Assembly: GCA_039594975.1 (NCBI GenBank) | Contig: JBCNMJ010000001.1 | Span: 20,402 to 84,401 of the forward strand | Source: Chryseobacterium sp. | GTDB taxonomy: Bacteria > Bacteroidota > Bacteroidia > Flavobacteriales > Weeksellaceae | Direction: 5' to 3' | DNA length: 64,000 nt | Shown here: piece after piece, positions 19,994-46,935 of the stretch | Layout: every line of letters starts with the position of its first letter | How positions within the stretch are numbered: position 1 is the first letter of the stretch | The notes under the pieces: generated by a model | Told to the model about the DNA's origin: nothing | Databases searched by the model: none | Seen by the model: only the letters and a program-made list of their open reading frames with translations | Position numbers and translations under genes: made by a program

Positions 19994-20029
19994 CAAAATT
20001 ATTACTCTAGTACGCATTCTTTTTACGCA
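19994..20029 (-). promoter_or_regulatory. Direct-repeat operator plus -7 box, internal promoter of the Y-RNA array
   Basis: TGCGTA-N7-TGCGTA-N9-TAATTTTG on the minus strand. Confidence 0.75.
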
Positions 20030-20047
20030 GTTGAAATTTATTTTAAA

Positions 20048-20131
20048 AACCAAGTAACAATTTTTAAGAGTTTTTGAATGTTTTCAAATTGGAAGTTTGA
20101 CGATGAAACTCTTATGATAACGACATTGGTT
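20048..20131 (-). ncRNA. Y-RNA-like unit H (minimal)
   Basis: AACCAA/UUGGUU closing stem; UGUCGU; UAAGAGU/ACUCUUA stem; variant UUUCAUCG. Confidence 0.65.
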
Positions 20132-20137
20132 AGTTTA

Positions 20138-20209
20138 AACCGAGCGATATAGCGAAAAGACTCTTATTCAAGTGGAAATCGAAGGAATTCTTTTCTTACG
20201 GCATCGGTT
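20138..20209 (-). ncRNA. Y-RNA-like unit I (minimal)
   Basis: AACCGA/UCGGUU closing stem; UGCCGU; GAAAAGA/UCUUUUC stem; variant UUCCUUCG. Confidence 0.65.
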
Positions 20210-20217
20210 GTTTTTCT

Positions 20218-20249
20218 TGTCATTGCGAGGAATGTAGCGATGAAGCAAT
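20218..20249. repeat. Partial flavobacterial REP-like repeat
   Basis: tgtcattgcgagg...gatgaagcaat resembles the gtcatt-type repeats elsewhere in this window. Confidence 0.45.
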
Positions 20250-20251
20250 AT

Positions 20252-20944
20252 TTAGTATTTAAATAGCATTTCATTAAAGTTTGGAATTATTTTTTTAGCT
20301 AAATTTAATACTTCTTGATTTTGCTCTCGAATATAAATTTGCTTTAATATATCTGTTAAAAAGTTATTTAAATCATCCGTTATTTTAAAGAATTCAATAA
20401 TCATTTCTCCAGTTTTATCTCCATCGAATTTAATTATTGTATTATAGTATAAATCTACATTATCACTAATATGACCACTAATATTGTTTCTAATCGTTTT
20501 CATATCCGTCTCATATCTATACTCTTTCTTAAAAGTCTTAATTGAACTGTTAATATTTACAAAATTTTCTTTGAGATGAGGAAGAGCTTTTTCGGAAAGT
20601 ATATTCAAGAATTCTTTATATTTATTAAATGTTTTAAAACTTTCAAAAATAGTTAAGTAAACATTCTTAATTATATAAATCTTTTCCCAATTATTTGAAG
20701 CATTATAAAGCATTTTACTAGATACGGCCAAATCTAGAGCCGCAATAGCAAACAATGAAACCACATCATTTATTTTTCTAACTAAATCAAAACCACCTAA
20801 ATACAAATCAATATTATTCGTATCAAAATGTGTTTTTACACAATCAATTACTTTATTTACCTTCATTGCTGTATCTAACACAACTGTAAAAACAGTAACT
20901 GTGGAATCTGCAGAATCATTAAAGCTTTTACCTATGATTTTCAT
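20252..20944 (-). CDS. Hypothetical protein, possible HEPN RNase
   Basis: 230 aa, helical, very AT-rich; IRNNISGH fits Rx4-6H. Confidence 0.5.
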   Translation of the reverse strand: MKIIGKSFNDSADSTVTVFTVVLDTAMKVNKVIDCVKTHFDTNNIDLYLGGFDLVRKINDVVSLFAIAALDLAVSSKMLYNASNNWEKIYIIKNVYLTIFESFKTFNKYKEFLNILSEKALPHLKENFVNINSSIKTFKKEYRYETDMKTIRNNISGHISDNVDLYYNTIIKFDGDKTGEMIIEFFKITDDLNNFLTDILKQIYIREQNQEVLNLAKKIIPNFNEMLFKY

Positions 20945-20975
20945 ACTAACTATTTTTATTTAACTTTCTTTATTA

Positions 20976-21060
20976 GCCCCGATTGCAACGGCATCCTTTT
21001 TCTAAAATGGTTTGAAAAAAGCGCTGGCGAAAAAGATATAGTGGAAAGCGGGAAATAGCT
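20976..21060. repeat. Bacteroidota intergenic repeat element
   Basis: agccccgattgcaacggcatcctttt...aaaaagatatagtggaaagcggga with partly self-complementary ends; recognised from memory. Confidence 0.5.
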
Positions 21061-21106
21061 CCTAAAAAAAATGTTTATTAGTTTTCTATTTTAAAAGCAG
21101 TGCCTT

Positions 21107-22624: not shown

Positions 22625-22683
22625 GGTTACTGTTTTTTAGTTAAACATTTTTGAGGATTATCATTCCTCTCTGATTTCTGATG

Positions 22684-29353: not shown

Positions 29354-29902
29354 TTACTGCTGCAGGCACCAATGCAAAATTTTCGCGATATTTTTAGCAT
29401 CATCCACACCTCTGTGATGCGTACCTTCAAGCTTGAGATTCAGTTCACCCAAAGCTCTTGCCATACCTACACTTTTGCGAACCGTCGGATGCAATTCTCC
29501 GAATAAGGTTTTCACGTTGATATGGTCATCACTCAAAGGATAATCCACATGAAATCTTCTTGCCTGATTTTGAAGCATGTTCAGATCGTAGTTTCCGTAA
29601 CTCGCCCAGGTCAGTTCTTCAGAATCGTATTCTGCTCTCAGAATATCTAATGCATCTTCCAGTAAAATGCCTTCATCATCAAGCATTTTCTGGGTAATGG
29701 AAGTCAGTTCCGTACAAAAAGGACTTACTTTTGAATATTGAGGTTTTACTAAAATCCCTTCATTTTTGGAAATCTTACCGGTTTTTGCATCCATAATACA
29801 AACTCCGATTTCAATGATTTCACTTTCCTGGCCTCTCGGCGGCCGGTCTTCCCAACATGTGGCTTCGAGGTCTATAATTAATATATTGTCTGTTGTTTTC
29901 AC
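29354..29902 (-). CDS. DEDDh 3'-5' exonuclease (ERI-1/KapD-like), copy 2
   Basis: IIDLEATCWE, WASYGNYD, HHRGVDDA. Confidence 0.9.
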   Translation of the reverse strand: MKTTDNILIIDLEATCWEDRPPRGQESEIIEIGVCIMDAKTGKISKNEGILVKPQYSKVSPFCTELTSITQKMLDDEGILLEDALDILRAEYDSEELTWASYGNYDLNMLQNQARRFHVDYPLSDDHINVKTLFGELHPTVRKSVGMARALGELNLKLEGTHHRGVDDAKNIAKILHWCLQQ

Positions 29903-29927
29903 TTTTTTAATTATTTGTTGTTAAAAT

Positions 29928-30473
29928 TTACCGCAAAATTTCTCTTAAAATCTTAGCGGCATTGTAAGCATCGTCTGCTCCACTGTGATGATTGCCTTCA
30001 AAGTTCATATTCAGAAACTTTAAAGCTCTTTTCAGGCCCATCATTTTATGAAGTCCGTTATAATTTTTAAACTGATGCATCACGTTGATATAATTTTCTG
30101 AAAAAGGATTTTCGATACCAAGATAATCACACTGCTCCATGATCTGTTCCTGATCAAAACTTCCGAAACCAGCCCAGGTAAGCCGCGAAGAATGGTATTC
30201 ATTCTTTATTTTCTCACAGGCTTCTTCGAAATAGATTCCTTTTTCTTCGATAAGTTGTGGAGTAATCCCGGTAAGATCTGTACAAAATCTACTGATCTTA
30301 GATCTTTCGGGAATTACATAGATACTTTGTTTCTTAGAAATTGCTTTTGTTGTTCTGTTTAATTCGCAAATTCCTATTTCTATGATATCGACTTTTTGCC
30401 CAACCGGAATCCTGTCGTTTTCCCAACATGTGGCTTCTAAATCGATGATTATTATTTCATTAGTTGTTTTCAT
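29928..30473 (-). CDS. DEDDh 3'-5' exonuclease (ERI-1/KapD-like), copy 1
   Basis: IIDLEATCWE, WAGFGSFD, HHSGADDA; likely start MKTTNE at 30473. Confidence 0.9.
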   Translation of the reverse strand: MKTTNEIIIIDLEATCWENDRIPVGQKVDIIEIGICELNRTTKAISKKQSIYVIPERSKISRFCTDLTGITPQLIEEKGIYFEEACEKIKNEYHSSRLTWAGFGSFDQEQIMEQCDYLGIENPFSENYINVMHQFKNYNGLHKMMGLKRALKFLNMNFEGNHHSGADDAYNAAKILREILR

Positions 30474-30586
30474 TTTGATTAATTTAATTCTACTTGTTTT
30501 CACTCATTGCATTGGGTTATTTTTGGTTGAAGGAGAATTAGGAAGAAGTTCTCTGAAGAAGAATTGACGTTGCTGATAAAGCTTTG

Positions 30587-30830: not shown

Positions 30831-31847
30831 CTATACTTTTACTGTCATTAATTCTTCTTTTACCAGATCAATGACCAAAGAATTCAACTTTTTGTTGATC
30901 CTTTTATGTTCTTCTTTTTCTATGGTTGTGAAAACCTCAGGAAAATCTTTTTCAAAATCTTCTAAAATATCCTGTGCAAAAAGACCGATCACTTTTCCAA
31001 TCATTTTGGGTTCAAATTCCCCAATTTTGCTTACCACATTATTCAATCTGTTTATGGTTGCATATCTTTGAATTTCGTTCCAAATATCCTGAGCTTTTTC
31101 ACTAAAATTGATTTGCTTTTGAACCGGCTTATTCTGTTTTCTTACCACTTTAGATTTTTCAACCCATTTTTCATTTTTGTTTTTCAAAATGACTCTTGAG
31201 CCGTTTCCAAAATATTTGGTTTTCAAAGTTTTCACGATGGTTCCTTCGCACATATTGTTCTCGACTTCCGGTAATCCCAACCAATCCGGAATTTTAGAAT
31301 CGAAAACATTCGGAAACTTCAAAGCTTCTTCTAAAGTTCCCTGAAATAAGATCTTTGCATAGAAAAAACCGGTTTCCTCAAAAATTTGATTCACTAAATC
31401 CGTATCCAAATAAGTAATTCCGTTCAATTTGATGTCGAATGCGTAAAACTCGTTGTAAGGTGCATATTCAATACCTTTCTGCACCTTCACTGCATCTTTT
31501 ACAGCTTCGACTTCTTTGTGTTTGTAACCGCCACCGAATAATTCACCGTAAATTACCACAGTTTCAACATTGGGATACATTGTTTTCACTCTTCCGAAAA
31601 CTTCCATTACATTTTTTCTGTAACGTTCTAAAATCTGATGTGCATTGAAGAACTTTTCATTTTTTTCAATGAAAGCGGTCCTTTTTCCGATTTTAATTTC
31701 CTTTCCGTCAGTAAAGAAAGAGAAATTTGCCCCGTGAACCTTCTCCTGTACGATGAAAACCTCATTCCAAAAACCCTGCATCCTGATCTGATCGATCACG
31801 CGGGTCTGGTAAGCATTTTCTATAGAGTTATATGTTTTGAAAATCAT
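30831..31847 (-). CDS. RNA ligase, Rnl2 family
   Basis: FKTYNSIEN, EKVHGANFS (motif I), YGELFG, EGTIVK, ILKNKN. Confidence 0.92.
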   Translation of the reverse strand: MIFKTYNSIENAYQTRVIDQIRMQGFWNEVFIVQEKVHGANFSFFTDGKEIKIGKRTAFIEKNEKFFNAHQILERYRKNVMEVFGRVKTMYPNVETVVIYGELFGGGYKHKEVEAVKDAVKVQKGIEYAPYNEFYAFDIKLNGITYLDTDLVNQIFEETGFFYAKILFQGTLEEALKFPNVFDSKIPDWLGLPEVENNMCEGTIVKTLKTKYFGNGSRVILKNKNEKWVEKSKVVRKQNKPVQKQINFSEKAQDIWNEIQRYATINRLNNVVSKIGEFEPKMIGKVIGLFAQDILEDFEKDFPEVFTTIEKEEHKRINKKLNSLVIDLVKEELMTVKV

Positions 31848-31851
31848 TTCT

Positions 31852-32415
31852 TTAATTTTTAATAGTTTCTAATTCATTATTTTTCATCTGAGTAACGTGT
31901 CTCTGAGCATGGAGTGAAAGGAAATAAATGTATTCGTACACATTGATTTTCCCCAGTTCATTTACCGTCATGGTTGTTTTGCAGAGAAGACCTTCGCCAT
32001 TTTTCATCAAGTCTAAATAATTTAAACATTGATGATATTGTTGAGAGATTAAACTTCTGATTTCAGCTAAATTCAATTCTCCTTTCGGCTCCATATGTTC
32101 CGGTCTTATCCATTCGAAAGCTCCATATTCACCTACTTTTTCAAACTTTCCTTGATCGAAACTGTAATTTTCTATTTCAAGATGTAGATCAAGATTAAGA
32201 TAATTTCGCATTGCTTTTTTTGAGCCTTTTTCAATGAGAATCAACAAATAAAAGTTTGTGAGATAGATATGTTCTAAAATCTGCCGAATCGTCCAGCCTC
32301 CGTTTGAAGGCTGAAAATTCAATATTTCATTATCTTTATCAAACCATCTGTTGACCTCATCAAAACTGATTTTCAAATGCGTTTTTATATCCTGAATTAA
32401 TCTAAAAATGTCCAT
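31852..32415 (-). CDS. DinB-family protein
   Basis: GGWTIRQILEHI, LHAQRHVTQM. Confidence 0.85.
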   Translation of the reverse strand: MDIFRLIQDIKTHLKISFDEVNRWFDKDNEILNFQPSNGGWTIRQILEHIYLTNFYLLILIEKGSKKAMRNYLNLDLHLEIENYSFDQGKFEKVGEYGAFEWIRPEHMEPKGELNLAEIRSLISQQYHQCLNYLDLMKNGEGLLCKTTMTVNELGKINVYEYIYFLSLHAQRHVTQMKNNELETIKN

Positions 32416-34142: not shown

Positions 34143-34149
34143 ATTGTTG

Positions 34150-34680: not shown

Positions 34681-34685
34681 TGTGG

Positions 34686-34951: not shown

Positions 34952-35084
34952 AGATGGTTATGGGATTATTCATAACCATTTTATTTTTTTATTTGAATTC
35001 ACGAATGTTTCACATTTCAAAACCCACTCAGCTTATGCAACGGTTTTGCAGGCCGCCCCGACTCTTCCACTTCGGCGAACCATC
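34952..35084 (-). tRNA. tRNA-Cys(GCA) interrupted in the T loop
   Basis: GATGGTT/AACCATC acceptor, U73, GCGGC-CTGCAAA-ACCGT, long variable arm; 58 nt instead of 7 between the T-stem strands. Confidence 0.7.
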
Positions 35085-35290
35085 GTTTTTTTATTGGTTG
35101 TTGGTTGATCGTTTTTAGATAAAATCACATTTCTAATTTCTAATTAAAAAATAAAGCCTATCTTAATTTCTATCATTTATCTCAAATTGAGTTAAGAAAA
35201 AGTTTGTCTATATTATATCGTGTTTTTGGCGTAAAGATCTTCTGCTCTTGACAAACCTTCTTTTTCTCTTTTGAAACAATTAACTTAGTA

Positions 35291-35375
35291 TGAATAGTGA
35301 ATTGTCAATTCGCTTCGCTGGTCAATTTTTAAATTCACTTGTAAAACAAAATTCACAATTGACTATTCACATTTT
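35291..35375. repeat. About 85-bp palindromic spacer element (further copies 35676-35760 and 35848-35924)
   Basis: tgaat(a/g)gtgaattgtcaat...attcac(a/t)attgac(t/c)attca with terminal inverted repeats. Confidence 0.8.
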
Positions 35376-35377
35376 CG

Positions 35378-35449
35378 TCTGGAAAGCAAGATTCGAACTT
35401 GCGACCTCCCGCGTCCAAGACGGGTAAACAACCACCGTTATCTTTCCAG
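35378..35449 (-). tRNA. tRNA-Pro(TGG)
   Basis: CCCGT-CTTGGAC-GCGGG; GCAAG-TTCGAAT-CTTGC; atypical D arm. Confidence 0.85.
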
Positions 35450-35517
35450 TTTTGCAGATTCACTTCAATTTTCTTTTCCGAGAGACAGTCGGATTCGAAA
35501 TTTTCCGTAAATCTTTG

Positions 35518-35589
35518 CGGTCTATGCGAGAATCGAACTCGCAGTGCCCGAGAGACAGTCGGGAAGGTTAACCATTACCTCAATAGACC
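35518..35589 (-). tRNA. tRNA-Asp(GTC)
   Basis: GGTCTAT/ATAGACC, G73; CCCGA-CTGTCTC-TCGGG. Confidence 0.92.
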
Positions 35590-35594
35590 TTTTG

Positions 35595-35668
35595 TGATTC
35601 CGACAGGGATCGAACCTGTAACCCTGGATTTAGAAAACCCATGCTCTATCCAATTGAACTACGGAACC
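35595..35668 (-). tRNA. tRNA-Arg(TCT)
   Basis: TGGGT-TTTCTAA-ATCCA; ACAGG-TTCGATC-CCTGT. Confidence 0.92.
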
Positions 35669-35761
35669 TTTTACGTGAATGGTGAATTGTCAATCCGCTT
35701 TGCTGGTCAATTTTTAAACTCACTTGTGAAGCAAAATTCACTATTGACCATTCACATTTTG

Positions 35762-35835
35762 TAATCCCAGAAGGACTCGAACCTTCAACCTTCGACGTAT
35801 CAGGTCGACGCTCCAACCAATTGAGCTATGAGATT
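35762..35835 (-). tRNA. tRNA-Ile(GAT)
   Basis: TCGAC-CTGATAC-GTCGA; GAAGG-TTCGAGT-CCTTC. Confidence 0.92.
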
Positions 35836-35925
35836 GTATTTTTGTTGTGAACGGTCAATTGTCAATTCGCTTTGCTTGTCAATTTACTTGTGAAACAAAA
35901 TTCACTATTGACCATTCATATTTTG

Positions 35926-35997
35926 GGTATCTCCGGGGATCGAACCCTGTTCTTCGGTTCCACAGACCGACGCTTTACCAAATAAGCTAGAGAAACC
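35926..35997 (-). tRNA. tRNA-His(GTG)
   Basis: G-1 and C73; TCGGT-CTGTGGA-ACCGA; T arm appears one nt short. Confidence 0.85.
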
Positions 35998-36900: not shown

Positions 36901-37920
36901 TCAATTCCTAAACATCTTATTTCTTCCTGTCTTATACCTCGAAATATCTTTCAAAATAATCTCATCATCGGGATTGAAATGTTTCAGTTCATTTACAATT
37001 TCGGAACGGCTGTTGATGTTTTCAGCAATAATGCTGTAAGCAATCTCCCTTGTAGATTTCCGTAGCCGCTGATCTTTTTTAAATTCAATTTTCATCACTT
37101 CCAGATAGATCAGTTTTTTATCCAAAGGAGTTTCTATATACAAATGCTGAATCTCTTTTTCCAGTGTATTGATTTCAGAAATATTTGAAAAATAAGTATT
37201 AAGGCTATTAAGAGCTTCTTTATTTTCTCTCCAGCCTTGAAGCAAAACCTTTTGAGCCTTTTCCGGGGATTCCATTTTGTTTCGGTATATCAAAGATGCT
37301 TTTACCATCTGATGACTCTGTATATAATCATCAACTACCATCTGATAAAATACAAGCGCATTCTCAAGATCGTTGATCTCTTTATATAAGTCTCCGACTT
37401 TTTCTTTTTGCTGAAGCTCCTTATATAGTGTAATGGCTTTATCATATTGTTTTGCTTTCACATAACAATTGGCAGCATCTACTTTACTTTGTACTTTTTT
37501 AAGAAAAACAACGGCGGCTTCATTATAAAATCCTCCTTGCTCCAGCGTTGAAGCAGCACGATAATTATCTTTTAAGAGGTTCATATAAACGATAGCAGCT
37601 TTTTTATATTCACCATCCTCTATATGCTTTCTGGCAATGTCTTCATACATGCTTCTAAGTTTATCAAACAAAGAAGTATCTATATAAGAACCACTTCCTC
37701 CATAATTTTTTCTTGCCGGCGGTTGCGGATCTTTTTCCTGATTCTGAAGAATAACAATAAGCACGATGGCAATGGCGGCAAAGAATATAAACTTGAATAC
37801 ACTTCCCAAAATATTTTCCAGATTCATTCTGGATGATTGGGCAATAATAGCAATTACCTTAAAAATCACGAGAATAAAAAAGGCCGTCAGAAACTTTTCT
37901 AAGAACTTTTGCTTTCTCAT
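36901..37920 (-). CDS. TPR-containing component of the MoxR-vWA (bpX-type) system
   Basis: Two N-terminal TM segments; TPR-like repeats (YKKAAIVY, AANCY, KVGDLY). Confidence 0.7.
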   Translation of the reverse strand: MRKQKFLEKFLTAFFILVIFKVIAIIAQSSRMNLENILGSVFKFIFFAAIAIVLIVILQNQEKDPQPPARKNYGGSGSYIDTSLFDKLRSMYEDIARKHIEDGEYKKAAIVYMNLLKDNYRAASTLEQGGFYNEAAVVFLKKVQSKVDAANCYVKAKQYDKAITLYKELQQKEKVGDLYKEINDLENALVFYQMVVDDYIQSHQMVKASLIYRNKMESPEKAQKVLLQGWRENKEALNSLNTYFSNISEINTLEKEIQHLYIETPLDKKLIYLEVMKIEFKKDQRLRKSTREIAYSIIAENINSRSEIVNELKHFNPDDEIILKDISRYKTGRNKMFRN

Positions 37921-39602
37921 TTTTTCCCTGGTTTTAAAATGTTGTCATCTTCACTAAATAAACGGTACAGGAGAATGACCACTCCTATTATCAACAGCCA
38001 TACCAGCCAATTGTATCCGAAAGAATTGATAAGCGGATAGAAAATATACAGTAAGGTAACAACTAAAATGGCGATCAAAATCAGTTTGATTCCGTCTGAC
38101 ACATATTTCCCTCCCATGTATAAAGGCTTTTTTCGCACAAAATATGAATAGAATGCCATTATTCCGACAGCAGCAAGTAATAACCAAACCACTTCTGAAA
38201 TTGAAATCTCCTTTTTCACACGGATATCCTGTGCAGCATTCAAAGCATCTTTTCCTGCATTTTCATTAAACATGATTTGAGGATCTGTTTCATGGGAAGT
38301 TCCATAAATTCTGGCCAGGGAATCTCTGAGTAGTCTTTTCCTGATTTCCAGAACATCATCTGCATACAACATCTTTGATCCTTCGGACATTTTGCTTGAA
38401 GAATCTTTCATGATAGAATCCAGGATTTTTTTATGATAATTCTTTGTCTTGATCTCTACGACCTGATCTATTTTTTTCAGGTACATTTTTTTCAATGAGT
38501 CCCGGAACTTTTTCTCTTTGACCCTATACTTTTCAATCTGCCACAGCATTTCCGCTTTTCCCTCTTTGGTGTTGGCAGCCCGCTTGTAATCACTGATCAG
38601 CCAACTTCTCTCATTTCCAAATAAAGAGTCTACTTTTCTGTCGATATCCGTAAATCCGGATTCGAACACCAAGCCTTCTTCGTTTTCTGTATGAGAGTTT
38701 TTTCCAATGGTATTTTCACTGTACGAATCTGCAGAGAGTTCCTGTTCTTGTCTTGCCTGATTTCTCCCAAAATCAATTGCAAAAATAATAATCACGATAA
38801 TGGCTAGAAAAAGAGCAAAGCCCTTCTGTTTACCAGTCATTTTACCTATTGGATTAGTTTCTCCCGAAGTGTTTTCATTGTTTCCTCCTAAACTTCCAAA
38901 CATTCCCCAATCAAAATTTCCGAAACCGCCTCGTAAAGCAGAATGAATATCTAACGGAATTCCCAGATAAACGGCACGTTCAGGATATTTTTTTAAATAT
39001 TCGATGTATTTCAAAATTTCATTCTGATCTCCTGCTTTTAATTTTTCCATATCAAATGGTAGATTTTTCATCCATTCTTCATCGGTTATAGGATTCAGAA
39101 GATCATTCAGTAGTTCATCATCATTCATATCCACTTTATAACTTCGGATCTTTTGCGGAATGAAAACTCCGTTTGAAGGCTTTTTGACTTTGGCTTCTGT
39201 TTGAGGAGATTCCTGTAACAATAAGACCCAATCTATTGCTTCATTTAATTTCACCAAACCGAAATCAGGATGCATAATGATATATTTTGCATCTATATTT
39301 TTCCAGTCATCAGAAGTTATTTTAGGATAAAAATCTGTATTTTCAGGAATAAACAATTTACTGTCAAAGTATTGAAAATATGAGTTCTTACCGATTTGTT
39401 CCGGCGCATATCCTTCAAAAACAATGAAACAACCGTAAAGAAGATTCGGCTCAAGAGAAGGAATGGCAAATGACTGTACTGCATTAAGATCTATTTCCAG
39501 CAATTCTATTTCGCGAAACCATACCAAAGGTGAAGCGCCTCTAATGAGAAGCCCTCTTTTGGGATAACTATTTTTCGGAAACGGCCTAATCTTCAACTCC
39601 AT
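37917..39602 (-). CDS. bpX-type domain plus membrane-anchored component
   Basis: Overlapping start/stop with neighbours; one central and three C-terminal TM segments. Confidence 0.6.
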   Translation of the reverse strand: MELKIRPFPKNSYPKRGLLIRGASPLVWFREIELLEIDLNAVQSFAIPSLEPNLLYGCFIVFEGYAPEQIGKNSYFQYFDSKLFIPENTDFYPKITSDDWKNIDAKYIIMHPDFGLVKLNEAIDWVLLLQESPQTEAKVKKPSNGVFIPQKIRSYKVDMNDDELLNDLLNPITDEEWMKNLPFDMEKLKAGDQNEILKYIEYLKKYPERAVYLGIPLDIHSALRGGFGNFDWGMFGSLGGNNENTSGETNPIGKMTGKQKGFALFLAIIVIIIFAIDFGRNQARQEQELSADSYSENTIGKNSHTENEEGLVFESGFTDIDRKVDSLFGNERSWLISDYKRAANTKEGKAEMLWQIEKYRVKEKKFRDSLKKMYLKKIDQVVEIKTKNYHKKILDSIMKDSSSKMSEGSKMLYADDVLEIRKRLLRDSLARIYGTSHETDPQIMFNENAGKDALNAAQDIRVKKEISISEVVWLLLAAVGIMAFYSYFVRKKPLYMGGKYVSDGIKLILIAILVVTLLYIFYPLINSFGYNWLVWLLIIGVVILLYRLFSEDDNILKPGKK

Positions 39603-41982
39603 ATTCCAATACTTGATCTATAAAAGGTTGTAAGTAATCTTCACACATTTCTTTAAGCGTTCTCACTTTAAGCAAAGTATGATCCGGTAAAAAATATTCT
39701 GCTCCCCCAAATTCTGTCTCTGTAGCCAATGCCATGACAGTATTTACAGTAGTCGACATATAAAATTCCGGAATATGACCATTCATACTTCTGAAAGTGA
39801 GCATTCCACGGGAATCCGCAATGATTTCGCTTCCGTCTGAAAATGTAAATTTATTTTTATTCTGATGTGCCACTACAAAGAACGGAGATTGGTTTTTAAA
39901 TAAATAAATAGTGGCGCCCCAGATACTCAGTTCATTTTTAGAAACGACCAGATTACGATTTTCATTAATGCCGATATGGATAAAATTACTGATAAATTTA
40001 TAACTGTTATGCTGGAGTTTCTCGACCTCAATTTTTACTTTTTCTATATTTTTAGCAATTTCAGGATCATTTTTCACAATTTCTAAAGAAACCTCACCTT
40101 CCAGATTGATCTCAAAAATGGTTGGTAAACTACTTTGATGCAGGTAAAAATGTCTGTTAAAATATACCAGCTCCATATTCAGCGGGACCTCAAAACCGGA
40201 TACATTCAGTTCAGAATATTCTTTTGTTTCAATATTAAGTTTTGAAACCAGGCTTTTATCCGGCCGATACTGGCACAGAATAAATTGTTGCTGCTTATTT
40301 TTAGCTAGGGCAAATATTCCTTTATCCTTTACAGAAATCCCTTCAAACAAAACTTCACAGCCCCTCAAGGTACTGTATATGCTATAGTAATTCTTGTTAT
40401 AATAATTATCCGAGAGATAAGTTCTCAACAATTGTTTTTTACTGCTTAGAATAAAAAATTCCCCTTCATACATAAACTTCGCAATTTTCTGCTGCGGAGT
40501 TGGAAAAAGCAAAGGATAATTGAGAGGAACATCTGTTTTCCCGCCTTTAGTACTCTGGCTGATTGTTCTTTTAGCTTTTCTATACGGAGGATCCTCCCAA
40601 AGTTCTTTCAACGGAAGCAGAATTTTTTGGATATGTTTTCTTGCTCCTAAATGATGTTTATAAAAATTAAGTTCTCCATCGGCAGAGGTGGTTACTAAAA
40701 ATTTTAACCGGTTTCTGTTTTCATGAATGACTTTCTGAAGATTTTCATTGGCTAAATTTTCATGATTGGTGATAAAGAACACTTCTATATCTTTTTCTGA
40801 ACGTTCTTTTTTGAAAAATAAATCTAAAGTTTCCGAAACATCCAATGTTCCGCTTACCAGATTCAGGTTTTCAATGACATCTTCCACCCGATCCAGTGTC
40901 ATCACAATACTGGATTGTCCTAAAGCATAGACTTTACACTCAGAGTGCGCTTTCGGGTGTTTGATAACGGCTAGTGCTGAAGCAAAAGACAAGACTTTGG
41001 GAGTTCCCCAGTTTTTCAGGGAAGTATCTATAAGGATAATTCTTTCGAAAACATTTTCTTCCGGCGGTATTTCCCTTTGGATATATAAAGCTTCATTATT
41101 GGCTACCCGGTTCATAAAAACCTCATCTTCATTCGCAAATTCCGACAGCAGCATTCTGTGGAGATCTCCTTTATTCGCAATATCTGAAACTCCACCAATC
41201 GGCTGTTCTCCTGGAGAAAGATGCCGCATCGGGATTTTAAGTCCGCTCCAGATCCTTTTAATTAAACTTCCTACCTGAAATGTTTTAGGTTCTTCAATTA
41301 GCTCCTGAATAAAATCTTTTTCAGGTTCTGTATTAGTTTTTTCTTCAGTTATTTCTTCTTTTATTTCCAGCTCACCCACCCAACCCTGCATGGCTTTTAT
41401 AATGGATTCAGTAGTTGGAAATTTATTGTAAACCCTTGATAATGCCTCAATATCTTTATAGAACACATCATGGGTAAGCAATAATTTATGGGCTGCATCG
41501 CCAATTTTTTGTGGACCTCTGTAATAGGTGGTCAAAATATATTCAGATTCTTCTGCAGAAAGCGAGTAAACCGAATCTTTAAAAAGAGTCTGAAAAAGAT
41601 TGATCCTGTTTTGTCCTTTCTTCATTGAGACACCAACTTTACTAAGATTTTCCAGCAGCTGACAGGCGTTTGCAATATCAAGATTGAAGGTACTTGTTTC
41701 CTCTGTTCTTAATTTTCTCAAAAAGTAGAAAATACCGTCAAGATTGAGATAGCCTTCCTGAGTTGCATACATTGTAAGAAGAAAAGCACCGAAAGGTGGG
41801 AAACCCTCCGGCTGAAGTTCTTTCAAAACTTCAATGATATAAGGTCTGTAAGCAATTACCCCTACATTCGGAACGGAGACTAGATTATTCTCAAGATATC
41901 CGGAAGGATCACGAACATCCTTATCTGTGATCCATTCCCAGAAATAATTTTCGTACGATTGAAAATAACTTACTAAATCCAT
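39586..41982 (-). CDS. bpX0-like plus vWA plus beta-rich C-terminal component
   Basis: GFPPFGAFLL; GDLHRMLLSEFA...EALY typical of MoxR-associated vWA; IILIDTS. Confidence 0.7.
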   Translation of the reverse strand: MDLVSYFQSYENYFWEWITDKDVRDPSGYLENNLVSVPNVGVIAYRPYIIEVLKELQPEGFPPFGAFLLTMYATQEGYLNLDGIFYFLRKLRTEETSTFNLDIANACQLLENLSKVGVSMKKGQNRINLFQTLFKDSVYSLSAEESEYILTTYYRGPQKIGDAAHKLLLTHDVFYKDIEALSRVYNKFPTTESIIKAMQGWVGELEIKEEITEEKTNTEPEKDFIQELIEEPKTFQVGSLIKRIWSGLKIPMRHLSPGEQPIGGVSDIANKGDLHRMLLSEFANEDEVFMNRVANNEALYIQREIPPEENVFERIILIDTSLKNWGTPKVLSFASALAVIKHPKAHSECKVYALGQSSIVMTLDRVEDVIENLNLVSGTLDVSETLDLFFKKERSEKDIEVFFITNHENLANENLQKVIHENRNRLKFLVTTSADGELNFYKHHLGARKHIQKILLPLKELWEDPPYRKAKRTISQSTKGGKTDVPLNYPLLFPTPQQKIAKFMYEGEFFILSSKKQLLRTYLSDNYYNKNYYSIYSTLRGCEVLFEGISVKDKGIFALAKNKQQQFILCQYRPDKSLVSKLNIETKEYSELNVSGFEVPLNMELVYFNRHFYLHQSSLPTIFEINLEGEVSLEIVKNDPEIAKNIEKVKIEVEKLQHNSYKFISNFIHIGINENRNLVVSKNELSIWGATIYLFKNQSPFFVVAHQNKNKFTFSDGSEIIADSRGMLTFRSMNGHIPEFYMSTTVNTVMALATETEFGGAEYFLPDHTLLKVRTLKEMCEDYLQPFIDQVLEYGVED

Positions 41983-42716
41983 TCTCTAGCTTTTTGAGTC
42001 AGACGGAAAGAGCTTACGGATAAGATTCTGAAATCATCTTTATTTATAGGTAAATAACTTCCGTTTTCATCCCATAGCAACCATTTATCGGACTCTATGT
42101 TATATTTTTTCTGTAGTAATGAGCTTACGTTTTTAAATTCAAAATCATATCCGCTCGGCAAAAGATGATGATCCTTTATCCAAAAAGTTTTTCCAGGAAA
42201 GCTTAATAAAGGAGTGCCAAGAAATAAAGCCTTATCATCCACAGTCATCCATTGTAATTTTTCCAGTTTAAATTTCGGAATCTCTATGATCTTATCTTTA
42301 ATATCATCAATGGAACATAAAAGTGCAGCAGCAGGAAATTCATGCTCTCCTTTTTTAAGATGCACTTCAATCTTTTCATCAACTCCAAAAAAATTATGAT
42401 TGGACGGAGGAAGGGATAATTTCAATGCCTTATCAATGGGTGACCAAAGTAAAGCCGTTCTTACTTTCTTACTTGGAACCAAAGCATTCCTTCTGAATAA
42501 AAGCCCGTTCTTTAGTTCATATATGATAAAATTAGGGAGTTTCTTAACTTCTGATGAAACTGCCTGTTCAAGACTAAAGCCTTTTAACCAAATACGATCA
42601 TCATCTGCCGCGATCTGAATATTTTTCCAGTCGCGGACAGCTCCTAAAGCGTATTCATCTTTTCGAGGAATTTCTGCCCAAAATTCTTTTAAGCGCTCTG
42701 AAGAATCTTCTGCCAT
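41973..42716 (-). CDS. bpX2-like component
   Basis: LGAVRDW..IWLKG and LFLGTPLLSFPG; position next to MoxR. Confidence 0.6.
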   Translation of the reverse strand: MAEDSSERLKEFWAEIPRKDEYALGAVRDWKNIQIAADDDRIWLKGFSLEQAVSSEVKKLPNFIIYELKNGLLFRRNALVPSKKVRTALLWSPIDKALKLSLPPSNHNFFGVDEKIEVHLKKGEHEFPAAALLCSIDDIKDKIIEIPKFKLEKLQWMTVDDKALFLGTPLLSFPGKTFWIKDHHLLPSGYDFEFKNVSSLLQKKYNIESDKWLLWDENGSYLPINKDDFRILSVSSFRLTQKAREWI

Positions 42717-43822
42717 AAGCTTTCAATTTCTTTTTGAATAAACTGTTTCTGCTCTGCGTTGGCAATCCAGTCGCAACGGGTTTGAAGATATCTCAGCTTA
42801 TCCTTAATCACGTTTTGTTCCTCAAAGCTGAGTCCTCCTGTTTCCCACTGATCAATCAGAATTTTCACATCCTTCATTACTTCTTCGGGATTTGGAGTTT
42901 TATTCTGTAAGGATTGTGGATGAGACTTCGGATTAGTGTCTTTTTCAATAGTCCGATTGATAATTCCTTCCAGAATTTCAATTTGTTCCTCTGTATCCCA
43001 AATATGTTTCAGTACCCACAAATCTGATAGTATAGCTTCGTTTCTTCCGCAAATCAAAGCACTTGCAGCAATAAGGTTCTGCATTTTAACAGCTCTACGG
43101 TCTGAAATGGTAATTCCTGTATTCCGGAGACTAATGATCGTATTAAGATATACCTCATAGATCGGCTTTAGATCAACCGTTTTACATAACGCCTGAAGAT
43201 CTTTGATTTCATGGGCTAAAATCACAGGAATATCTGAATCTGTTGTTGTTTCAAGTTTTCTTCCGGCCAAAAGAACCTGCTGAAGAAGATTGGGATTGAC
43301 ATAACCTACATTAATTCTTACTAAAAAGCGATCGAAAAGAGCATTCAGTGCTTCATCTTCAGGAAGAACATTACTTGCACCTACGAACATCAGTGCGGGA
43401 AGATGTTTGGTTTCTTTACCTCTTTTGAAAATCTTTTCATTTAAAGCCATCAATAGGGAATTCAGAATTGCAGAATTGGCATTGAAAATTTCATCTAGAA
43501 ATACCATTGAAGCTTCCGGCATCATCCCTTCTGTATTCGTTAATAGCTCACCTTCTTTTAATTTTCTGATATCAAAAGGACCAAAAATTTCAGTCGGTTC
43601 TGTAAATCTGGTGAGAAGATATTCGAAATTTTTCCCGTCTTTTACGGTTTTTGCCAGTGTTCTTACGAGAGCTGATTTTGCGGTTCCGGGAGGGCCGTAT
43701 AAAAATGCATTTTCTCTTGCCAGCAAACAGATTCCCAATAAATCCACTACATCGTTTTTACCGACAAATGTATTTTTTACGTAGTTAAGAACATTATTTA
43801 ATTTATCAATATTTTGAGTCAT
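42689..43822 (-). CDS. MoxR/RavA-type AAA+ ATPase
   Basis: GPPGTAKS, YLLTRFTEP.EIFGP, FLDEIF, GASN, ALFDRF. Confidence 0.93.
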   Translation of the reverse strand: MTQNIDKLNNVLNYVKNTFVGKNDVVDLLGICLLARENAFLYGPPGTAKSALVRTLAKTVKDGKNFEYLLTRFTEPTEIFGPFDIRKLKEGELLTNTEGMMPEASMVFLDEIFNANSAILNSLLMALNEKIFKRGKETKHLPALMFVGASNVLPEDEALNALFDRFLVRINVGYVNPNLLQQVLLAGRKLETTTDSDIPVILAHEIKDLQALCKTVDLKPIYEVYLNTIISLRNTGITISDRRAVKMQNLIAASALICGRNEAILSDLWVLKHIWDTEEQIEILEGIINRTIEKDTNPKSHPQSLQNKTPNPEEVMKDVKILIDQWETGGLSFEEQNVIKDKLRYLQTRCDWIANAEQKQFIQKEIESLWQKILQSA

Positions 43823-44474
43823 TATGATCCGTATTATTTATTTTTAATTCTTTCCAGAAAGCATTTTTATACCATCCGAATTCTGCAGTCAATAATTTAT
43901 GGATATAAGGAATTTCCGCCAATCTGTATATTTTATTGTCTACAATTCTTTCAAGATAAAGTTTTCTGTAGGTTGTATCTTTCAGCTCTTCCTCCCATTT
44001 CAGATGTTCCAATTCTATATCTGCTTCAATTCCGGAATAGTGGAATTGTTTTAAAATCGTTTCAAGTAATACAATCAAAGGGTCATCTGCATCTACATTT
44101 TTCAAAGCGACCACAATCTGTGGTAAAAACCTCAATGAAAGATCTGCGGATAGCTTTGCAGAAAGGTCAAACTTTCCTTTAAACTCAGGAATCAGTTTTG
44201 CAAGATCTTTTTCCGTATTTTCCCGAACAAGATAAAGCTGAACACTATGATAAAGGATTTTTGCCGCCCAAACTGCTGCTGCTTTATCAAACGGAATCTG
44301 ATCAGATAAGAACTCCAGTCTTTCTTTTTCAAATTCGGTTTCAAAATATTCTGCCGCTTCCTGTTCCTCTTTTAATGAAATTTGTTTTACATCCGCAAAA
44401 ATGGTGATGCATTCTTCTTGCCGGAGCAGAAATAAAGTAGCTAAAAATGGTGATCTGGTTTCCATCATAAACAA
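43806..44474 (-). CDS. bpX4-like component
   Basis: SADLSLRFLP motif, YLERI; first gene of the operon. Confidence 0.65.
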   Translation of the reverse strand: MFMMETRSPFLATLFLLRQEECITIFADVKQISLKEEQEAAEYFETEFEKERLEFLSDQIPFDKAAAVWAAKILYHSVQLYLVRENTEKDLAKLIPEFKGKFDLSAKLSADLSLRFLPQIVVALKNVDADDPLIVLLETILKQFHYSGIEADIELEHLKWEEELKDTTYRKLYLERIVDNKIYRLAEIPYIHKLLTAEFGWYKNAFWKELKINNTDHNDSKY

Positions 44475-44583
44475 AAATATAATTATTTCTCTGAGAATAA
44501 AATTTTTAATTCAATGATTAAGAATTAAATACTATTTTTCTTTATAAATATTAAAACAACAGAAAATGAATACAATCAATAAA

Positions 44584-44614
44584 GCTCGGCTCAGATCTTC
44601 GATCTGAGCCGAGC
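44584..44614. repeat. Perfect 14-bp GC-rich hairpin
   Basis: gctcggctcagatc-ttc-gatctgagccgagc; terminator or REP. Confidence 0.7.
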
Positions 44615-44645
44615 CAAAGTAATAAGCCGACTTAAGAACTTAGAA

Positions 44646-45035
44646 CTATTTTATAATCTCAATGATGTTGTTTTCAGGGTCGAGAATTACGCTTTCGTAG
44701 TATCCGTCTCCTGAAGTTCTGGGTTCTCCTGCCACTTTGTAGCCGTCATTTCTAAGTATTTCAGTTAATTCATCTACCTTTTCCTTGCTTCCTGTAGAAA
44801 ATGCAAGATGAATAATTCCGAACTTCTGAGCTTCAAAAGAATTGTTCCCTTCCTGAATATCAGGTCTTGTCATAATTTCCAGTCGGCTTCCGTTTTCAAA
44901 GCTTAAGAAATAAGATTCAAAGTTTTTTACAGAATTACGATATTTTTCATTGGAAATTGCGCCAAAATATTTTTCATAAAAGCTTCTCATCTTCTCTAAA
45001 TCCTTTACCCAAAACGCAACGTGTTCTATTTTCAT
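44646..45035 (-). CDS. VOC/glyoxalase family protein
   Basis: MKIEHVAFW, GIIHLAFS, DGYYESVILDPENNIIEI. Confidence 0.9.
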   Translation of the reverse strand: MKIEHVAFWVKDLEKMRSFYEKYFGAISNEKYRNSVKNFESYFLSFENGSRLEIMTRPDIQEGNNSFEAQKFGIIHLAFSTGSKEKVDELTEILRNDGYKVAGEPRTSGDGYYESVILDPENNIIEIIK

Positions 45036-45278
45036 GTAATCTTTTATTTTTATTAATTTTTTGAGTAATCCTTGTTTCAATAAACAAAACTATTGAAATA
45101 AATATTGTGAATAAATTTAAATTCGCGTTTACAGCTCTTCCTAAATACTTGTAAAAAAGAAGGCTTCATTAATAAATTTTACCTAAAAAGTATTATCAAT
45201 TAAAAAAAATTCATGAAACACTAAATTAACAATTCTCTATTCACATATTTGTTATATTTGCAGCTTCAAAATAAAATT

Positions 45279-45989
45279 ATGAGTATTCACATTAGTGCAA
45301 AAAAAGGAGAAATTGCTAAAGTCGTGTTGCAGCCGGGAGATCCGCTTCGCGCACAATATATTGCTGAAAACTATCTGGAAAATGCAAAATTAGTAAGTAA
45401 AACGAGAGGCATTTTTTATTATACAGGACTTTATAAGGGAAAGGAAATCACTGTAGGTGCTAGTGGAATGGGATTCCCAAGTATCGGAATCTATTCTTTT
45501 GAATTGTTTACGGAATATGAGGTGGATACAATCATCAGAATCGGAACCTGTGGTGCTTACACAACAGATCTGAAAACTTTTGATATCTTAAACGTTGAAA
45601 AGGCAGCGAGTGAAAGTACTTACGCCAAATTTGCCTGGGAAATTGAAGATGAAATCCTTTCTCACCAGGGAAGTATTTTTGGTACCATCAATACAACTGC
45701 TAAAGAACTATCTTTAACTCCAAAAGCAATCAACGTCCACAGTAGTGATATTTTTTACAGAAAAGATCCTGCTGTTCCTGCCATTGCTACAAAATACAAC
45801 TGTCCTGCTGTAGAGATGGAAGCGTTCGGATTGTTCGCCAATGCCCAACATTTAGGAAAAAACGCAGCAACCATTCTTACGGTAACCGATATTATCCCGA
45901 CTCATGAAAAAATCTCTGCTGATGAAAGGGAAACAGCTTTGAAACCAATGATGGAGCTGGCTTTGGAATCTGCCATTAAAAGTTTATAA
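45279..45989 (+). CDS. deoD: Purine-nucleoside phosphorylase
   Basis: PGDPLRAQYIA, GMGFPSIGIY, IRIGTCG, VEMEA; start MSIHI at 45279. Confidence 0.95.
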   Translation: MSIHISAKKGEIAKVVLQPGDPLRAQYIAENYLENAKLVSKTRGIFYYTGLYKGKEITVGASGMGFPSIGIYSFELFTEYEVDTIIRIGTCGAYTTDLKTFDILNVEKAASESTYAKFAWEIEDEILSHQGSIFGTINTTAKELSLTPKAINVHSSDIFYRKDPAVPAIATKYNCPAVEMEAFGLFANAQHLGKNAATILTVTDIIPTHEKISADERETALKPMMELALESAIKSL

Positions 45990-46058
45990 AAGTAAGATTA
46001 CTAAAAAATCTTACAAAATAAGCAAGTCGATAAACAAATAAATTGATGGCTTGAAAAT

Positions 46059-46096
46059 AAAAAAAGAGTTTTACTTCATCTGTAAAACTCTTTTTT
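46059..46096. terminator. Bidirectional terminator between deoD and tatD
   Basis: aaaaagagttttac-ttcatct-gtaaaactcttttt. Confidence 0.8.
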
Positions 46097-46880
46097 ATAT
46101 CCTGAAAAAATCTCCGGTAACTTCTGTCGTTTCTCTGGCGACTTCTGAAATACTGATTTTCTTTAGATTCGCAACTGTCTGAGCTACGTAAGGTAAAAAG
46201 GCCGGCTCATTTCTGCGGTTCTGCATTCTCGGCATATTTTTCGGCAGCATGAATGGCGCATCGGTTTCAATCATCATTCGATCGAGAGGAACATATTTAA
46301 TAACTTCTTCCAGATGTTTAAATCTGTTCTGATCACTGATTGCCCCGGTAAATCCTAAATAAAATCCTTTATCCAAATACATTTTTGCTTCATTTAAAGT
46401 TCCCGTGAAACAATGAACGACTGCTTTTGGAAGTTTAGGAAGATATTCGTCTGTAATCTCATTAAACCTTTTGAAAGCCGATCTTTCATGAAGAAAAAGA
46501 GGTTTATTTACTTCTATGGCCAATTCCAATTGAGCACGATAGCATTTTTCCTGAACAGGTCTTGGAGAAAAATCTCTGTCAAAATCCAGTCCACATTCCC
46601 CGACGGAAACAACATGATCTTGTTTTAATAAATTCCTGAGCTCGTTGATACTTTCATGAGTAAAAGATTTTGCATCATGAGGATGAATTCCCGCTGTTGA
46701 AAATAAAATTTCGGGATAATCTTCTGCAATCGCCGTAGATTCTTTACTGCCACGAACACTTGTTCCTGTGAGAATCATTTGCTCTACTCCGTTGTCAAGA
46801 GCTCTATTGACAATTTCTTCGTGTTCATTGTAAAACTGTTTATTGGTAAGATTTATACCAATGTCGATAAATGTGTTCAT
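46095..46880 (-). CDS. tatD: TatD family nuclease
   Basis: IDIGINL, TAGIHPH, VGECGLD, FLHER, VHCFTG, IETDAPF. Confidence 0.95.
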   Translation of the reverse strand: MNTFIDIGINLTNKQFYNEHEEIVNRALDNGVEQMILTGTSVRGSKESTAIAEDYPEILFSTAGIHPHDAKSFTHESINELRNLLKQDHVVSVGECGLDFDRDFSPRPVQEKCYRAQLELAIEVNKPLFLHERSAFKRFNEITDEYLPKLPKAVVHCFTGTLNEAKMYLDKGFYLGFTGAISDQNRFKHLEEVIKYVPLDRMMIETDAPFMLPKNMPRMQNRRNEPAFLPYVAQTVANLKKISISEVARETTEVTGDFFRI

Positions 46881-46899
46881 TTTTTAACTTTTTAAACCG

Positions 46900-46935
46900 C
46901 AAATATTCACAACAGGTACGCAATCTTTCTTCGTA
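46900..46935 (-). promoter_or_regulatory. Direct-repeat operator plus -7-like box upstream of tatD
   Basis: TACGAA-N7-TGCGTA-N9-AATATTTG on the minus strand. Confidence 0.6.

Follow-up and report, generated by a model that had tools for sequence, protein, structure and literature searches.

To our knowledge, how RNA damage is sensed to control the ligase RtcB, Ro60 and Y RNAs is largely unknown outside the Proteobacteria, with the RtcR-sigma-54 system representing the only worked-out case. According to two reports, rsr-yrlBA-rtcBA is under the control of RtcR, a CARF-domain enhancer-binding protein of the sigma-54 type that has been suggested to sense damaged tRNA fragments (PMC7790460, PMC10159003). 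A second group of relevant regulators combines a helix-turn-helix (HTH) region with WYL and WCX domains. Among them, DriD of Caulobacter crescentus forms a homodimer whose winged HTH (wHTH) domains bind the pseudo-palindrome ATACGAC-N7-GTCGTAT; in all of its promoters, this site overlaps the place where a -35 element would be and keeps an invariable distance to the -10 element, and the binding of single-stranded DNA (ssDNA) to the WYL domain lifts autoinhibition (PMC13004042). SiwR recognizes a 19-bp imperfect palindrome located between the -35 and -10 elements of a divergent operon, with the -26 region being needed, and binds ssDNA but not single-stranded RNA (ssRNA) (PMC10693628). Here, we analyze a stretch of 64,000 nucleotides from Chryseobacterium sp. 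(assembly GCA_039594975.1, contig JBCNMJ010000001.1, positions 20,402 to 84,401; G+C content 35%), referred to as the window, and describe a conserved promoter element, the box, that precedes genes for Ro60, Y-RNA-like RNAs and 3'-5' exonucleases at four sites. We judge it probable that the four boxes are the binding sites of one DriD-like HTH-WYL-WCX factor encoded elsewhere in the genome.

The four sites (S1 to S4, Table 1) are all located on the minus strand and, as the original prediction had proposed, share an identical geometry, with nine nucleotides (N9) separating the second hexamer of the box from the TAnnTTTG sequence in each of them (4/4). The pattern TGCGYA-N13-TTTGC occurs five times in the window, compared with 0.04 expected matches, and five matches were reached in 0 of 100 shuffles. 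The bare hexamer is not enriched (28 occurrences vs 26.8 expected), so that the signal resides in the arrangement. A matrix derived from S1 to S4 found no other position in the window above 17 bits. An independent matrix, trained only on 70 sites from WYL-centered loci of other organisms, assigned 31.9 bits to S2, 28.7 bits to S1, 19.8 bits to S4 and 17.9 bits to S3, and these four were the only sites above 10 bits among 128,000 positions, the maximum of 20 shuffles being 8.5 bits. The fifth match to the pattern, a TGCGTA form within pspA (16399-16422, plus strand), is treated as a chance occurrence outside the system, because it lacks the upstream hexamer and the independent matrix gives it less than 10 bits.

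The box is an imperfect 19-bp palindrome composed of two TRCGYA hexamers, which are spaced by seven nucleotides (N7) and lie 13 bp apart center to center. The hexamer varies at positions 2 (R) and 5 (Y) and is its own reverse complement, and the spacer between the two copies is A-rich and oriented (AAAAGAW). The box is found 13-14 nt upstream of the TTTG of the Bacteroidota -7 box, at the usual place of the -33 element, whose TTTG/TTG position is taken up by hexamer 1 and the spacer. Positions are numbered with the G of TAnnTTTG at -7, following the Bacteroidota promoter consensus. The original prediction had described the element as a direct repeat, a term that fits only S1 and, roughly, S3; the hexamers of S2 (TACGCA/TGCGCA) and S4 (TACGAA/TGCGTA) are inverted, and S1 and S3 look direct because the R and Y positions vary. 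Its premise that WYL activators bind direct repeats is likewise at odds with the characterized proteins DriD and SiwR, which bind pseudo-palindromes (PMC13004042, PMC10693628). The hexamer pairs in the WYL-centered loci considered below are mainly TACGCA/TGCGCA (29), TGCGCA/TGCGTA (21), TACGCA/TGCGTA (18) and TGCGCA/TGCGCA (10). Since TGCGTA/TGCGTA pairs do not occur there (0), the direct-looking form appears to be a habit of Chryseobacterium, with the imperfect palindrome as the predicted phylum-wide operator.

A scan of 185,579 species genomes for the strict pattern TGCGTA-N7-TGCGTA-N13-TTTGC retrieved 105 loci. Fifty-seven of these belong to Chryseobacterium or Weeksellaceae and invariably contain the spacer AAAAGAW; the remainder comprise a few other Bacteroidota and matches scattered over unrelated phyla in roughly the number expected by chance (an estimated 50-70). 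The predominance of Chryseobacterium arises because the pattern required TGCGTA twice, and the scan is uninformative on the absence of the box outside this genus. Conservation among the non-redundant sites extends to features left free in the search pattern, namely the spacer (A-A-A-A-G/C-A), an AAC ahead of the box, the TAA within the -7 box and the C that comes after TTTG. The sequence cTACGCA-AAAAGrT-TGCGyA-N9-TTACTTTGC is retained in the Ro60 promoters of about 20 Chryseobacterium species. Exact boxes in this genus also precede tatD (in at least nine loci), Y-RNA-like regions with orf279 and, in L050, L030, L010, L005 and other Chryseobacterium loci, several genes absent from the window, which encode a 454-amino-acid (aa) SDR with a Cys-rich N-terminus, basic, lysine-rich proteins of 105 aa and 73-75 aa, and a DUF6584 protein. 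In 16 Chryseobacterium loci, the box is preceded by a homolog of orf230.

Among the clustered neighbors of the Chryseobacterium sites, no gene for a DNA-binding protein is found repeatedly. Within the window, the repeats could in principle be bound by a LytTR response regulator, encoded together with a histidine kinase just upstream of Ro60 (24301-23576), or by a 201-aa, cI/RstR-like HTH_3 protein encoded divergently from the ybjN-pspA operon (17442-18047, plus strand). Both genes adjoin the Ro60/Y-RNA locus, and LytTR proteins do bind direct repeats, but these are 9-mers about 21 bp rather than 13 bp apart. Moreover, the LytTR neighbor is not conserved: among 58 loci with the motif, which are mostly from Chryseobacterium and include 23 with Ro60, no more than four have a gene of its size. 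The HTH_3 protein has a different palindrome of its own, ATTGCAAATATTTTTAGCAAT, which lies in the 87-bp intergenic region at 17355-17441 and is unrelated to the box, and neither protein accompanies the box in other taxa. We therefore give this explanation almost no credence.

In box loci outside Chryseobacterium, by contrast, the box is adjoined by the gene for a 332-343-aa protein that starts with MxxNKNALIRYKTID and contains, according to Pfam, a WYL domain (PF13280) followed by a WCX domain (PF25583), a composition shared by all Chryseobacterium orthologs. In L048, this gene and rtcB diverge from an intergenic region of 189 bp that holds the box; the WYL gene also adjoins the box in L044, L067 and L026, and a weaker paralog is found near the box in L027. 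L048 is labeled as an Oscillospiraceae metagenome-assembled genome, yet it has a Bacteroidota-type -7 box and its WYL protein is 46% identical to a Bacteroidales one; it was probably mis-binned. The WYL family is very large in the Flavobacteriaceae, to which all hits of a first protein search belonged, and the signature LKE[YF][RN]NRW[FY] is nearly invariant among its members. In four of four Flavobacteriaceae genomes examined (Winogradskyella undariae, Tenacibaculum sp. Bg11-29, Polaribacter cellanae and T. maritimum), one to three boxes lie within a few kb of the WYL gene, with rtcB, a prfH operon and a 0.6-1.3-kb stretch ahead of Band_7 as targets. A metagenome scan with a WYL alignment yielded 80 more WYL-centered loci, bringing the total to 85 (1.09 Mb). 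In this set, TRCGYA-Nx-TRCGYA occurs 162 times at x = 7, compared with 0-6 times at every other x between 3 and 12, and at least one box is present in 60 of the 85 loci. The great majority of sites (82/89) point away from the WYL gene; 40 of the 89 are situated 20-260 nt upstream of its start codon and 23 more within 1.3 kb (63 in total). The TTTG follows hexamer 2 at an offset of 13 in 48 sites and of 14 in 32 sites (80/89). The first open reading frame (ORF) downstream of the box encodes RtcB (31 cases), Band_7 (10), Ro60 (8), the WYL protein itself (5) or RlaP (4). Furthermore, 11 metagenome loci have a Ro60 homolog, 62-65% identical to that of the window, encoded divergently from the WYL gene, in eight cases with a strict box ahead.

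Comparative genomics supports the original prediction of one regulator, possibly of the WYL type. The idea of a single regulator agrees with the finding that S1 to S4 belong to one tightly defined motif family, which extends from Chryseobacterium to Flavobacteriaceae and Bacteroidales. Its suggested WYL-type identity is consistent with the proximity of WYL gene and box in L048, L044, L067 and L026, in all four Flavobacteriaceae genomes, in the 60 loci mentioned above and in C. zhengzhouense. Some further observations concern the family and its loci. The closest relatives of the Flavobacteriaceae regulator at the 50%-cluster level (P0121-P0131 and similar) are 517-579 aa long, and their extra C-terminal ~200 aa gave no Pfam match. 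Plasmid-borne WYL paralogs of Chryseobacterium, identified by tblastn, were discarded as candidates; they are ~32% identical to the Tenacibaculum member, lie next to helicase-type defense genes and have no box. The box-driven non-coding stretches ahead of Band_7 are found at 5825-6736 (minus strand) of L106, 12845-13673 of L108 and 4555-5284 of L109; that of L106 (Winogradskyella) contains tRNA, tRNA-like and YrlA-like elements, with Ro60 not nearby.

The original prediction had seen no candidate regulator in the window, and neither tblastn nor Pfam detected a WYL protein in the 64 kb; two unannotated ORFs of 333 aa and 316 aa at its left end were rejected as not WYL-like. A Chryseobacterium ortholog was located by ranking metagenome WYL loci according to their tetranucleotide similarity to the window, followed by a protein search. 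The top-ranking loci L133, L131 and L148 reached r = 0.92-0.94, the range of known Chryseobacterium loci. The L133 protein is 83-95% identical to proteins named Chryseobacterium (populi, limigenitum, zhengzhouense, formosense, gambrini, sp. Tr-659, sp. JV558, indologenes and others), with matches from Elizabethkingia at 78-80%, and several of these species are among those with boxes in the genome scan. The HTH region of the Chryseobacterium ortholog is 60-75% identical to that of the box-linked WYL proteins, and its putative recognition helix, placed from a structural model, VSKRTVQLDLQNMRS, is nearly identical to theirs. In C. zhengzhouense, a hopJ-WYL gene pair and rtcB are divergently oriented, and the region between them holds a box with one mismatch, TACGCA-AAAACAT-TGCACA-N9-TTACTTTGC, and, ahead of rtcB, a tRNA-like leader; in L131 and L156 the WYL gene adjoins a box-preceded rtcB together with rlaP. 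As to the organism of the window itself, metagenome run X1 contains the window without differences at a word depth of 7-9, as well as a contig of 6.5 kb (depth 9.4) whose sequence is collinear with the WYL locus of L133 (~85% identity). X1 being a metagenome, this contig was tentatively placed in the genome of the window on depth alone; a WYL ortholog is likely present in the window's own organism. A run search with the window returned DNA metagenomes only, and none of the runs found for the C. populi locus was an RNA run.

Several side observations relate to these loci. The RNA-repair cluster of C. zhengzhouense (L191, 1-9300) contains rtcB, a gene for a 597-aa SMC_N-like protein and genes for RlaP, an R2K ligase-like protein and an AAA_33 kinase-like protein, as well as a Thg1-like 3'-5' polymerase and a second TROVE paralog with its own box. 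In C. populi CF314 (L193, 1-5211), the WYL ortholog is located beside a type II Cas9-Cas1-Cas2 locus rather than rtcB. A short element upstream of the WYL gene in L133 (9762-9800) is a dispersed repeat; in three runs, it draws a large number of unrelated contigs at high depth.

An AlphaFold model of the Chryseobacterium ortholog P0298 shows three N-terminal helices and a beta hairpin, followed by helices and then beta-rich domains; with a mean predicted local distance difference test score (pLDDT) of 78 and a predicted template-modeling score (pTM) of 0.46, the domain arrangement is uncertain. In a Foldseek search, this model matched DriD over its full length (E = 4e-14, 343 columns, TM ~0.47), including DriD with ssDNA and target DNA and DriD in complex with RNA polymerase, followed by PafBC in its RNA polymerase-bound state. 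The repressors BrxR and CapW were further off (~1e-7). A sequence profile likewise matched PafBC, DriD, BrxR and CapW in the PDB. We infer that the WYL protein binds the box and activates rather than represses transcription. A DriD-like activator is favored because the hexamers with their TACG core, the N7 spacing, the absent -33 position and the rigid distance to the -7 box match the layout of DriD and SiwR sites. The protein would act as a homodimer, with each wHTH domain reading one TRCGYA hexamer at about -42 to -24, in place of the missing -33 element, and would let RNA polymerase use -33-less sigma-A promoters, a mode of action demonstrated for DriD and suggested for PafBC and SiwR. The oriented A-rich spacer may serve DNA bending or contact with RNA polymerase. 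In the window, the predicted regulon would comprise Ro60, orf230 and one Y-RNA-like unit, the Y-RNA-like array with orf279, the two DEDD exonucleases and TatD. In relatives, it would also include rtcB, rlaP, operons with prfH, tRNA-like RNAs ahead of Band_7 and, in many cases, the divergent operon of the regulator.

The same WYL protein could also bind the box as a repressor of the BrxR/CapW kind, occluding the core promoter until its release by a ligand. This notion would agree with the overlap of the box with the -42 to -24 region of each promoter, with the 40 sites close to the start codon of the regulator, which is a typical autorepression layout, and with the existence of WYL repressors that match the model. 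However, repressor operators usually float in position, whereas unrelated genes share a rigid distance between box and -7 element (13 or 14 nt in 80/89 sites) and the -33 element is missing, both hallmarks of promoter-coupled activation. In addition, the closest structural relatives, DriD and PafBC, are activators, and the promoters of DriD and SiwR share the layout. We thus regard repression as unlikely. The rigid distance to the start region is also compatible with the idea that the box is the recognition element of an alternative sigma factor of the extracytoplasmic function (ECF) type. Indeed, an AAC ahead of hexamer 1 in most sites and the CGTA of hexamer 2, ~15 nt downstream, resemble ECF -35 and -10 cores. 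Still, this possibility is very remote, because a sigma-A-type TAnnTTTG follows at a fixed distance, the hexamers are self-complementary copies of each other, unlike sigma elements, the AAC-to-CGTA spacing of 15 is short for ECF promoters, and no sigma/anti-sigma gene is linked, whereas the WYL gene is.

Two other systems were considered and dismissed. The operator of the non-canonical SOS regulator LexA in Bacteroidota (GGA-N5-TCC, CTAA-N5-TTAG or a diverged dyad-N5-dyad) differs from TRCGYA-N7-TRCGYA in sequence and spacing (PMC8565304). The sigma-54 promoter of RtcR-controlled rtc operons (-24/-12, TGGCAC-N5-TTGC) does not fit either, as the distance from hexamer to TTGC is 20 nt instead of 11 nt and the core is a sigma-A -7 box. 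Nor does any of the loci examined have a CARF-AAA+ activator adjoining rtcB or Ro60, whereas the WYL gene does adjoin them.

The DriD-like activator has to be weighed against several observations that argue in the opposite direction. In the genus of the window, the regulator is usually unlinked from the four targets, and no box is found near the WYL gene in C. populi or L133. The case for pairing box and WYL protein comes from comparative genomics only, and a box over the core promoter and in the regulator's own upstream region is also typical of a repressor operator. The asymmetric, oriented spacer is unexplained by a purely symmetric dimer, and the closest relatives are known to bind ssDNA rather than RNA as their ligand, with SiwR showing no ssRNA binding (PMC10693628). 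Lastly, 25 of the 85 WYL-centered loci lack a strict box; many of these are short, and one-mismatch boxes exist, as in C. zhengzhouense. Some of these points would also fit a scenario in which a different, undetected regulator binds the box and the WYL gene is a frequent neighbor or a member of the regulon: the link is one of genomic linkage, the strict box is missing from those 25 loci, and in Chryseobacterium a long distance often separates the WYL gene and the boxes, as exemplified by C. zhengzhouense, whose WYL-rtcB cluster lies ~480 kb from the Ro60/Y-RNA boxes of this species. We nevertheless hold such a regulator to be quite improbable, considering that no other DNA-binding gene recurs among the clustered neighbors of the boxes, that a hexamer-N7-hexamer arrangement with a TACG core is the architecture of DriD sites, and that most loci have the box within the divergent control region of the WYL gene itself.

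If a DriD-like WYL activator indeed binds the boxes, its WYL domain would sense single-stranded nucleic acid arising from RNA or DNA damage. The content of the regulon suggests RNA damage as the trigger, because it features RNA ligase, Ro60/Y RNA, tRNA-like RNAs, PrfH, RlaP, a Thg1-like protein and 3'-5' exonucleases. It is conceivable, albeit rather doubtful, that the WYL domain senses damaged RNA, such as tRNA halves, 2',3'-cyclic phosphate ends or the tRNA-like Y RNAs of the regulon, and not ssDNA, given that TatD and DEDD exonucleases also act on DNA and that the relatives of the regulator sense ssDNA.

The genes and RNAs behind the boxes are compiled in Table 1, and their family matches agree with the identities originally given for them (Ro60, Y-RNA units, exonuclease pair and tatD). 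The orf230 gene is probably co-transcribed with Ro60, and the Y-RNA-like unit that follows it would be transcribed from S2 rather than S1. Unit heads of the form GTGYCGT..ACTTCG occur at 19952, 19721, 19570, 19440, 18335 and 18175, in this locus only and always on the minus strand, and a sub-threshold match to YrlA (RF02553, E = 1e-4) was obtained at 19616-19684. Homologs of orf279 are found behind the box in L008, L034, L078 and L088, and homologs of the DUF434/DUF5616 gene and orf216 in the WYL-RtcB-RlaP clusters of Tenacibaculum (L107 and L109). S4 begins immediately after the stop codon of orf216. The regulator, orf216, orf230, orf279 and DUF434 are not covered by any NCBIfam model. The 5' leader of Ro60 (22625-22683, minus strand; CAGAAATCAGAGAGGAA..TCCTC..ATGTTTAAC) is conserved in ~20 Chryseobacterium species, and the predicted folds of its hairpins are no more stable than those of shuffled sequences.

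Table 1. Boxes and associated genes in the window (positions count from its first nucleotide; box sequences are given as hexamer-spacer-hexamer-N9-core, with the following C in parentheses).
Feature	Position	Strand	Sequence elements	Context
S1, box and -7	20029-19994	-	TGCGTA-AAAAGAA-TGCGTA-CTAGAGTAA-TAATTTTG(C); core + C = TAATTTTGC	promoter of Y-RNA-like units and orf279
S2, box and -7	22719-22684	-	TACGCA-AAAACAT-TGCGCA-AAATCATCC-TTATTTTG(C); core + C = TTATTTTGC	Ro60 promoter
S3, box and -7	30622-30587	-	TGTGTA-AATAGAA-TGCGTA-CTACTGATT-TACCTTTG(C); core + C = TACCTTTGC	promoter of exonuclease pair
S4, box and -7	46935-46900	-	TACGAA-GAAAGAT-TGCGTA-CCTGTTGTG-AATATTTG(C); core + C = AATATTTGC	tatD promoter
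Ro60/Rsr homolog, TROVE and Ro60 vWA domains	22624-21107	-		first gene behind S2
orf230, without family match	20252-20944	-		between Ro60 and S1
Y-RNA-like unit	20090-20215 (3' end approximate)	-	head ATGCCGTAAG..CCTTCG at 20204	upstream of S1
Array of Y-RNA-like/tRNA-like units	19230-19952	-	heads at 19952, ~19825, 19721, 19570, 19440; T-arm-like GGTTCGAATCC segments	behind S1
orf279, faint SUKH-like match only	18349-19188	-		downstream of unit array
Two more Y-RNA-like unit heads	18060-18335 (3' end approximate)	-	heads at 18335 and 18175	after orf279
Two tandem DEDD 3'-5' exonucleases (RNase_T, KapD-like)	29354-30503	-		operon behind S3
TatD-family 3'-5' ssDNA/RNA exonuclease	46095-46880	-		gene behind S4
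DUF434/DUF5616 gene and orf216	46942-48308	-		without own box in the window; tied by context only

The remaining features of the window include a Flavo-1 RNA (RF01705, 63.6 bits; 20971-21059, plus strand), which is called antisense to the surrounding operon, in the gap that separates Ro60 from orf230. Eleven tRNA genes (Gln, Phe, Leu x2, Glu, Tyr, Pro, Asp, Arg, Ile and His) form an array at 33733-35997 on the minus strand, which is flanked, at 30831-33373, by an RNaseH-like PF04308 gene, a DinB_2 gene and a gene for an Rnl2-type RNA ligase; together, these genes resemble an island for tRNA back-up and repair. Between the tRNA array and tatD (36901-44474, minus strand) lies a complete MoxR-vWA-beta-propeller ternary conflict system (bpMoxR, bpX0-bpX4 and a TPR protein), and its neighborhood is also present in other Chryseobacterium loci. 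The matrix scan of the window revealed no box at the Flavo-1 RNA, the Rnl2/DinB_2 genes, the tRNA array or the MoxR system. At 8480-15452 on the minus strand, an ORF of 669 aa without family match lies behind the gene for a DUF3686/DUF7902/AAA protein of 1602 aa, and the two may represent a defense or repair module.

Collectively, the box and its WYL neighbor point to an undescribed, phylum-wide RNA-repair regulon. A literature search retrieved no link between WYL proteins and RtcB, Ro60 or PrfH in Bacteroidota and no printed version of the motif, with an earlier mention of the gene neighborhood being possible. What appears to be new is the operator, the phylum with its promoter type and the RNA-repair regulon, the HTH-WYL-WCX regulator class as such being known. 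The candidate regulator family has thousands of members in Flavobacteriia, Bacteroidia and Cytophagia-type lineages, and the first list of its predicted regulon takes in the poorly understood RlaP, PrfH, Band_7, DUF434/DUF5616, SDR and small basic proteins as well as multi-copy Y-RNA-like genes. With a precisely defined operator and a named candidate family, the question becomes testable in tractable Bacteroidota, and the box may serve as a sequence tag for new RNA-repair genes and non-coding RNAs. Activation of the -35-less type known from DriD and PafBC would, moreover, extend to the unusual -33/-7 promoters of the Bacteroidota. Should the WYL domain sense RNA, it would represent the first RNA-sensing WYL transcription activator and a Bacteroidota counterpart of the CARF-based RtcR, switching on a dispersed regulon (Ro60/Y RNA, RtcB, RlaP, PrfH, Thg1-like protein and exonucleases) via -33-less promoters.

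Among the known systems, DriD resembles the predicted regulator most closely. It is the best full-length structural match (wHTH, three-helix bundle, WYL and WCX), and its site ATACGAC-N7-GTCGTAT shares the N7 pseudo-palindromic design and the TACG core with the box (TACGCA-N7-TGCGTA), the two being fixed over an absent -35 and an absent -33 element, respectively. However, DriD is only ~15% identical to the Bacteroidota regulator, with an N-terminal domain outside the sequence-profile match, the Bacteroidota promoters are of the -33/-7 type, and the spacer of the box is conserved, A-rich and oriented. The DriD regulon, moreover, belongs to the SOS-independent DNA damage response (didA, bapE, recJ and others), whereas the genes behind the box (Ro60, Y RNA, RtcB, RlaP, PrfH and exonucleases) relate to RNA repair and quality control. 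The mycobacterial proteins SiwR and PafBC, WYL activators associated with a -26 element and sigma adaptation, share the WYL-WCX core. SiwR is similar in acting as a homodimer on a 19-bp imperfect palindrome next to a divergent operon, and PafBC in having sites that replace the -35 element, although PafBC, a heterodimer in fused form, has a site that is asymmetric. Both differ in their ssDNA ligands, their DNA-damage and DinB-like regulons, their phylum and their promoter type. BrxR and CapW are also HTH-WYL-WCX dimers and often divergent from their targets, but they are repressors of phage-defense operons and weaker structural matches. In function, the closest parallel is RtcR of Salmonella and E. 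coli, which controls the RtcB ligase, Ro60/Rsr and Y RNAs (PMC7790460, PMC10159003). As a CARF-AAA+-HTH protein that uses a different sigma factor and an upstream enhancer mechanism, RtcR is related to the predicted WYL regulator by analogy, not homology, and it controls one operon, whereas the WYL box is found at several dispersed promoters.

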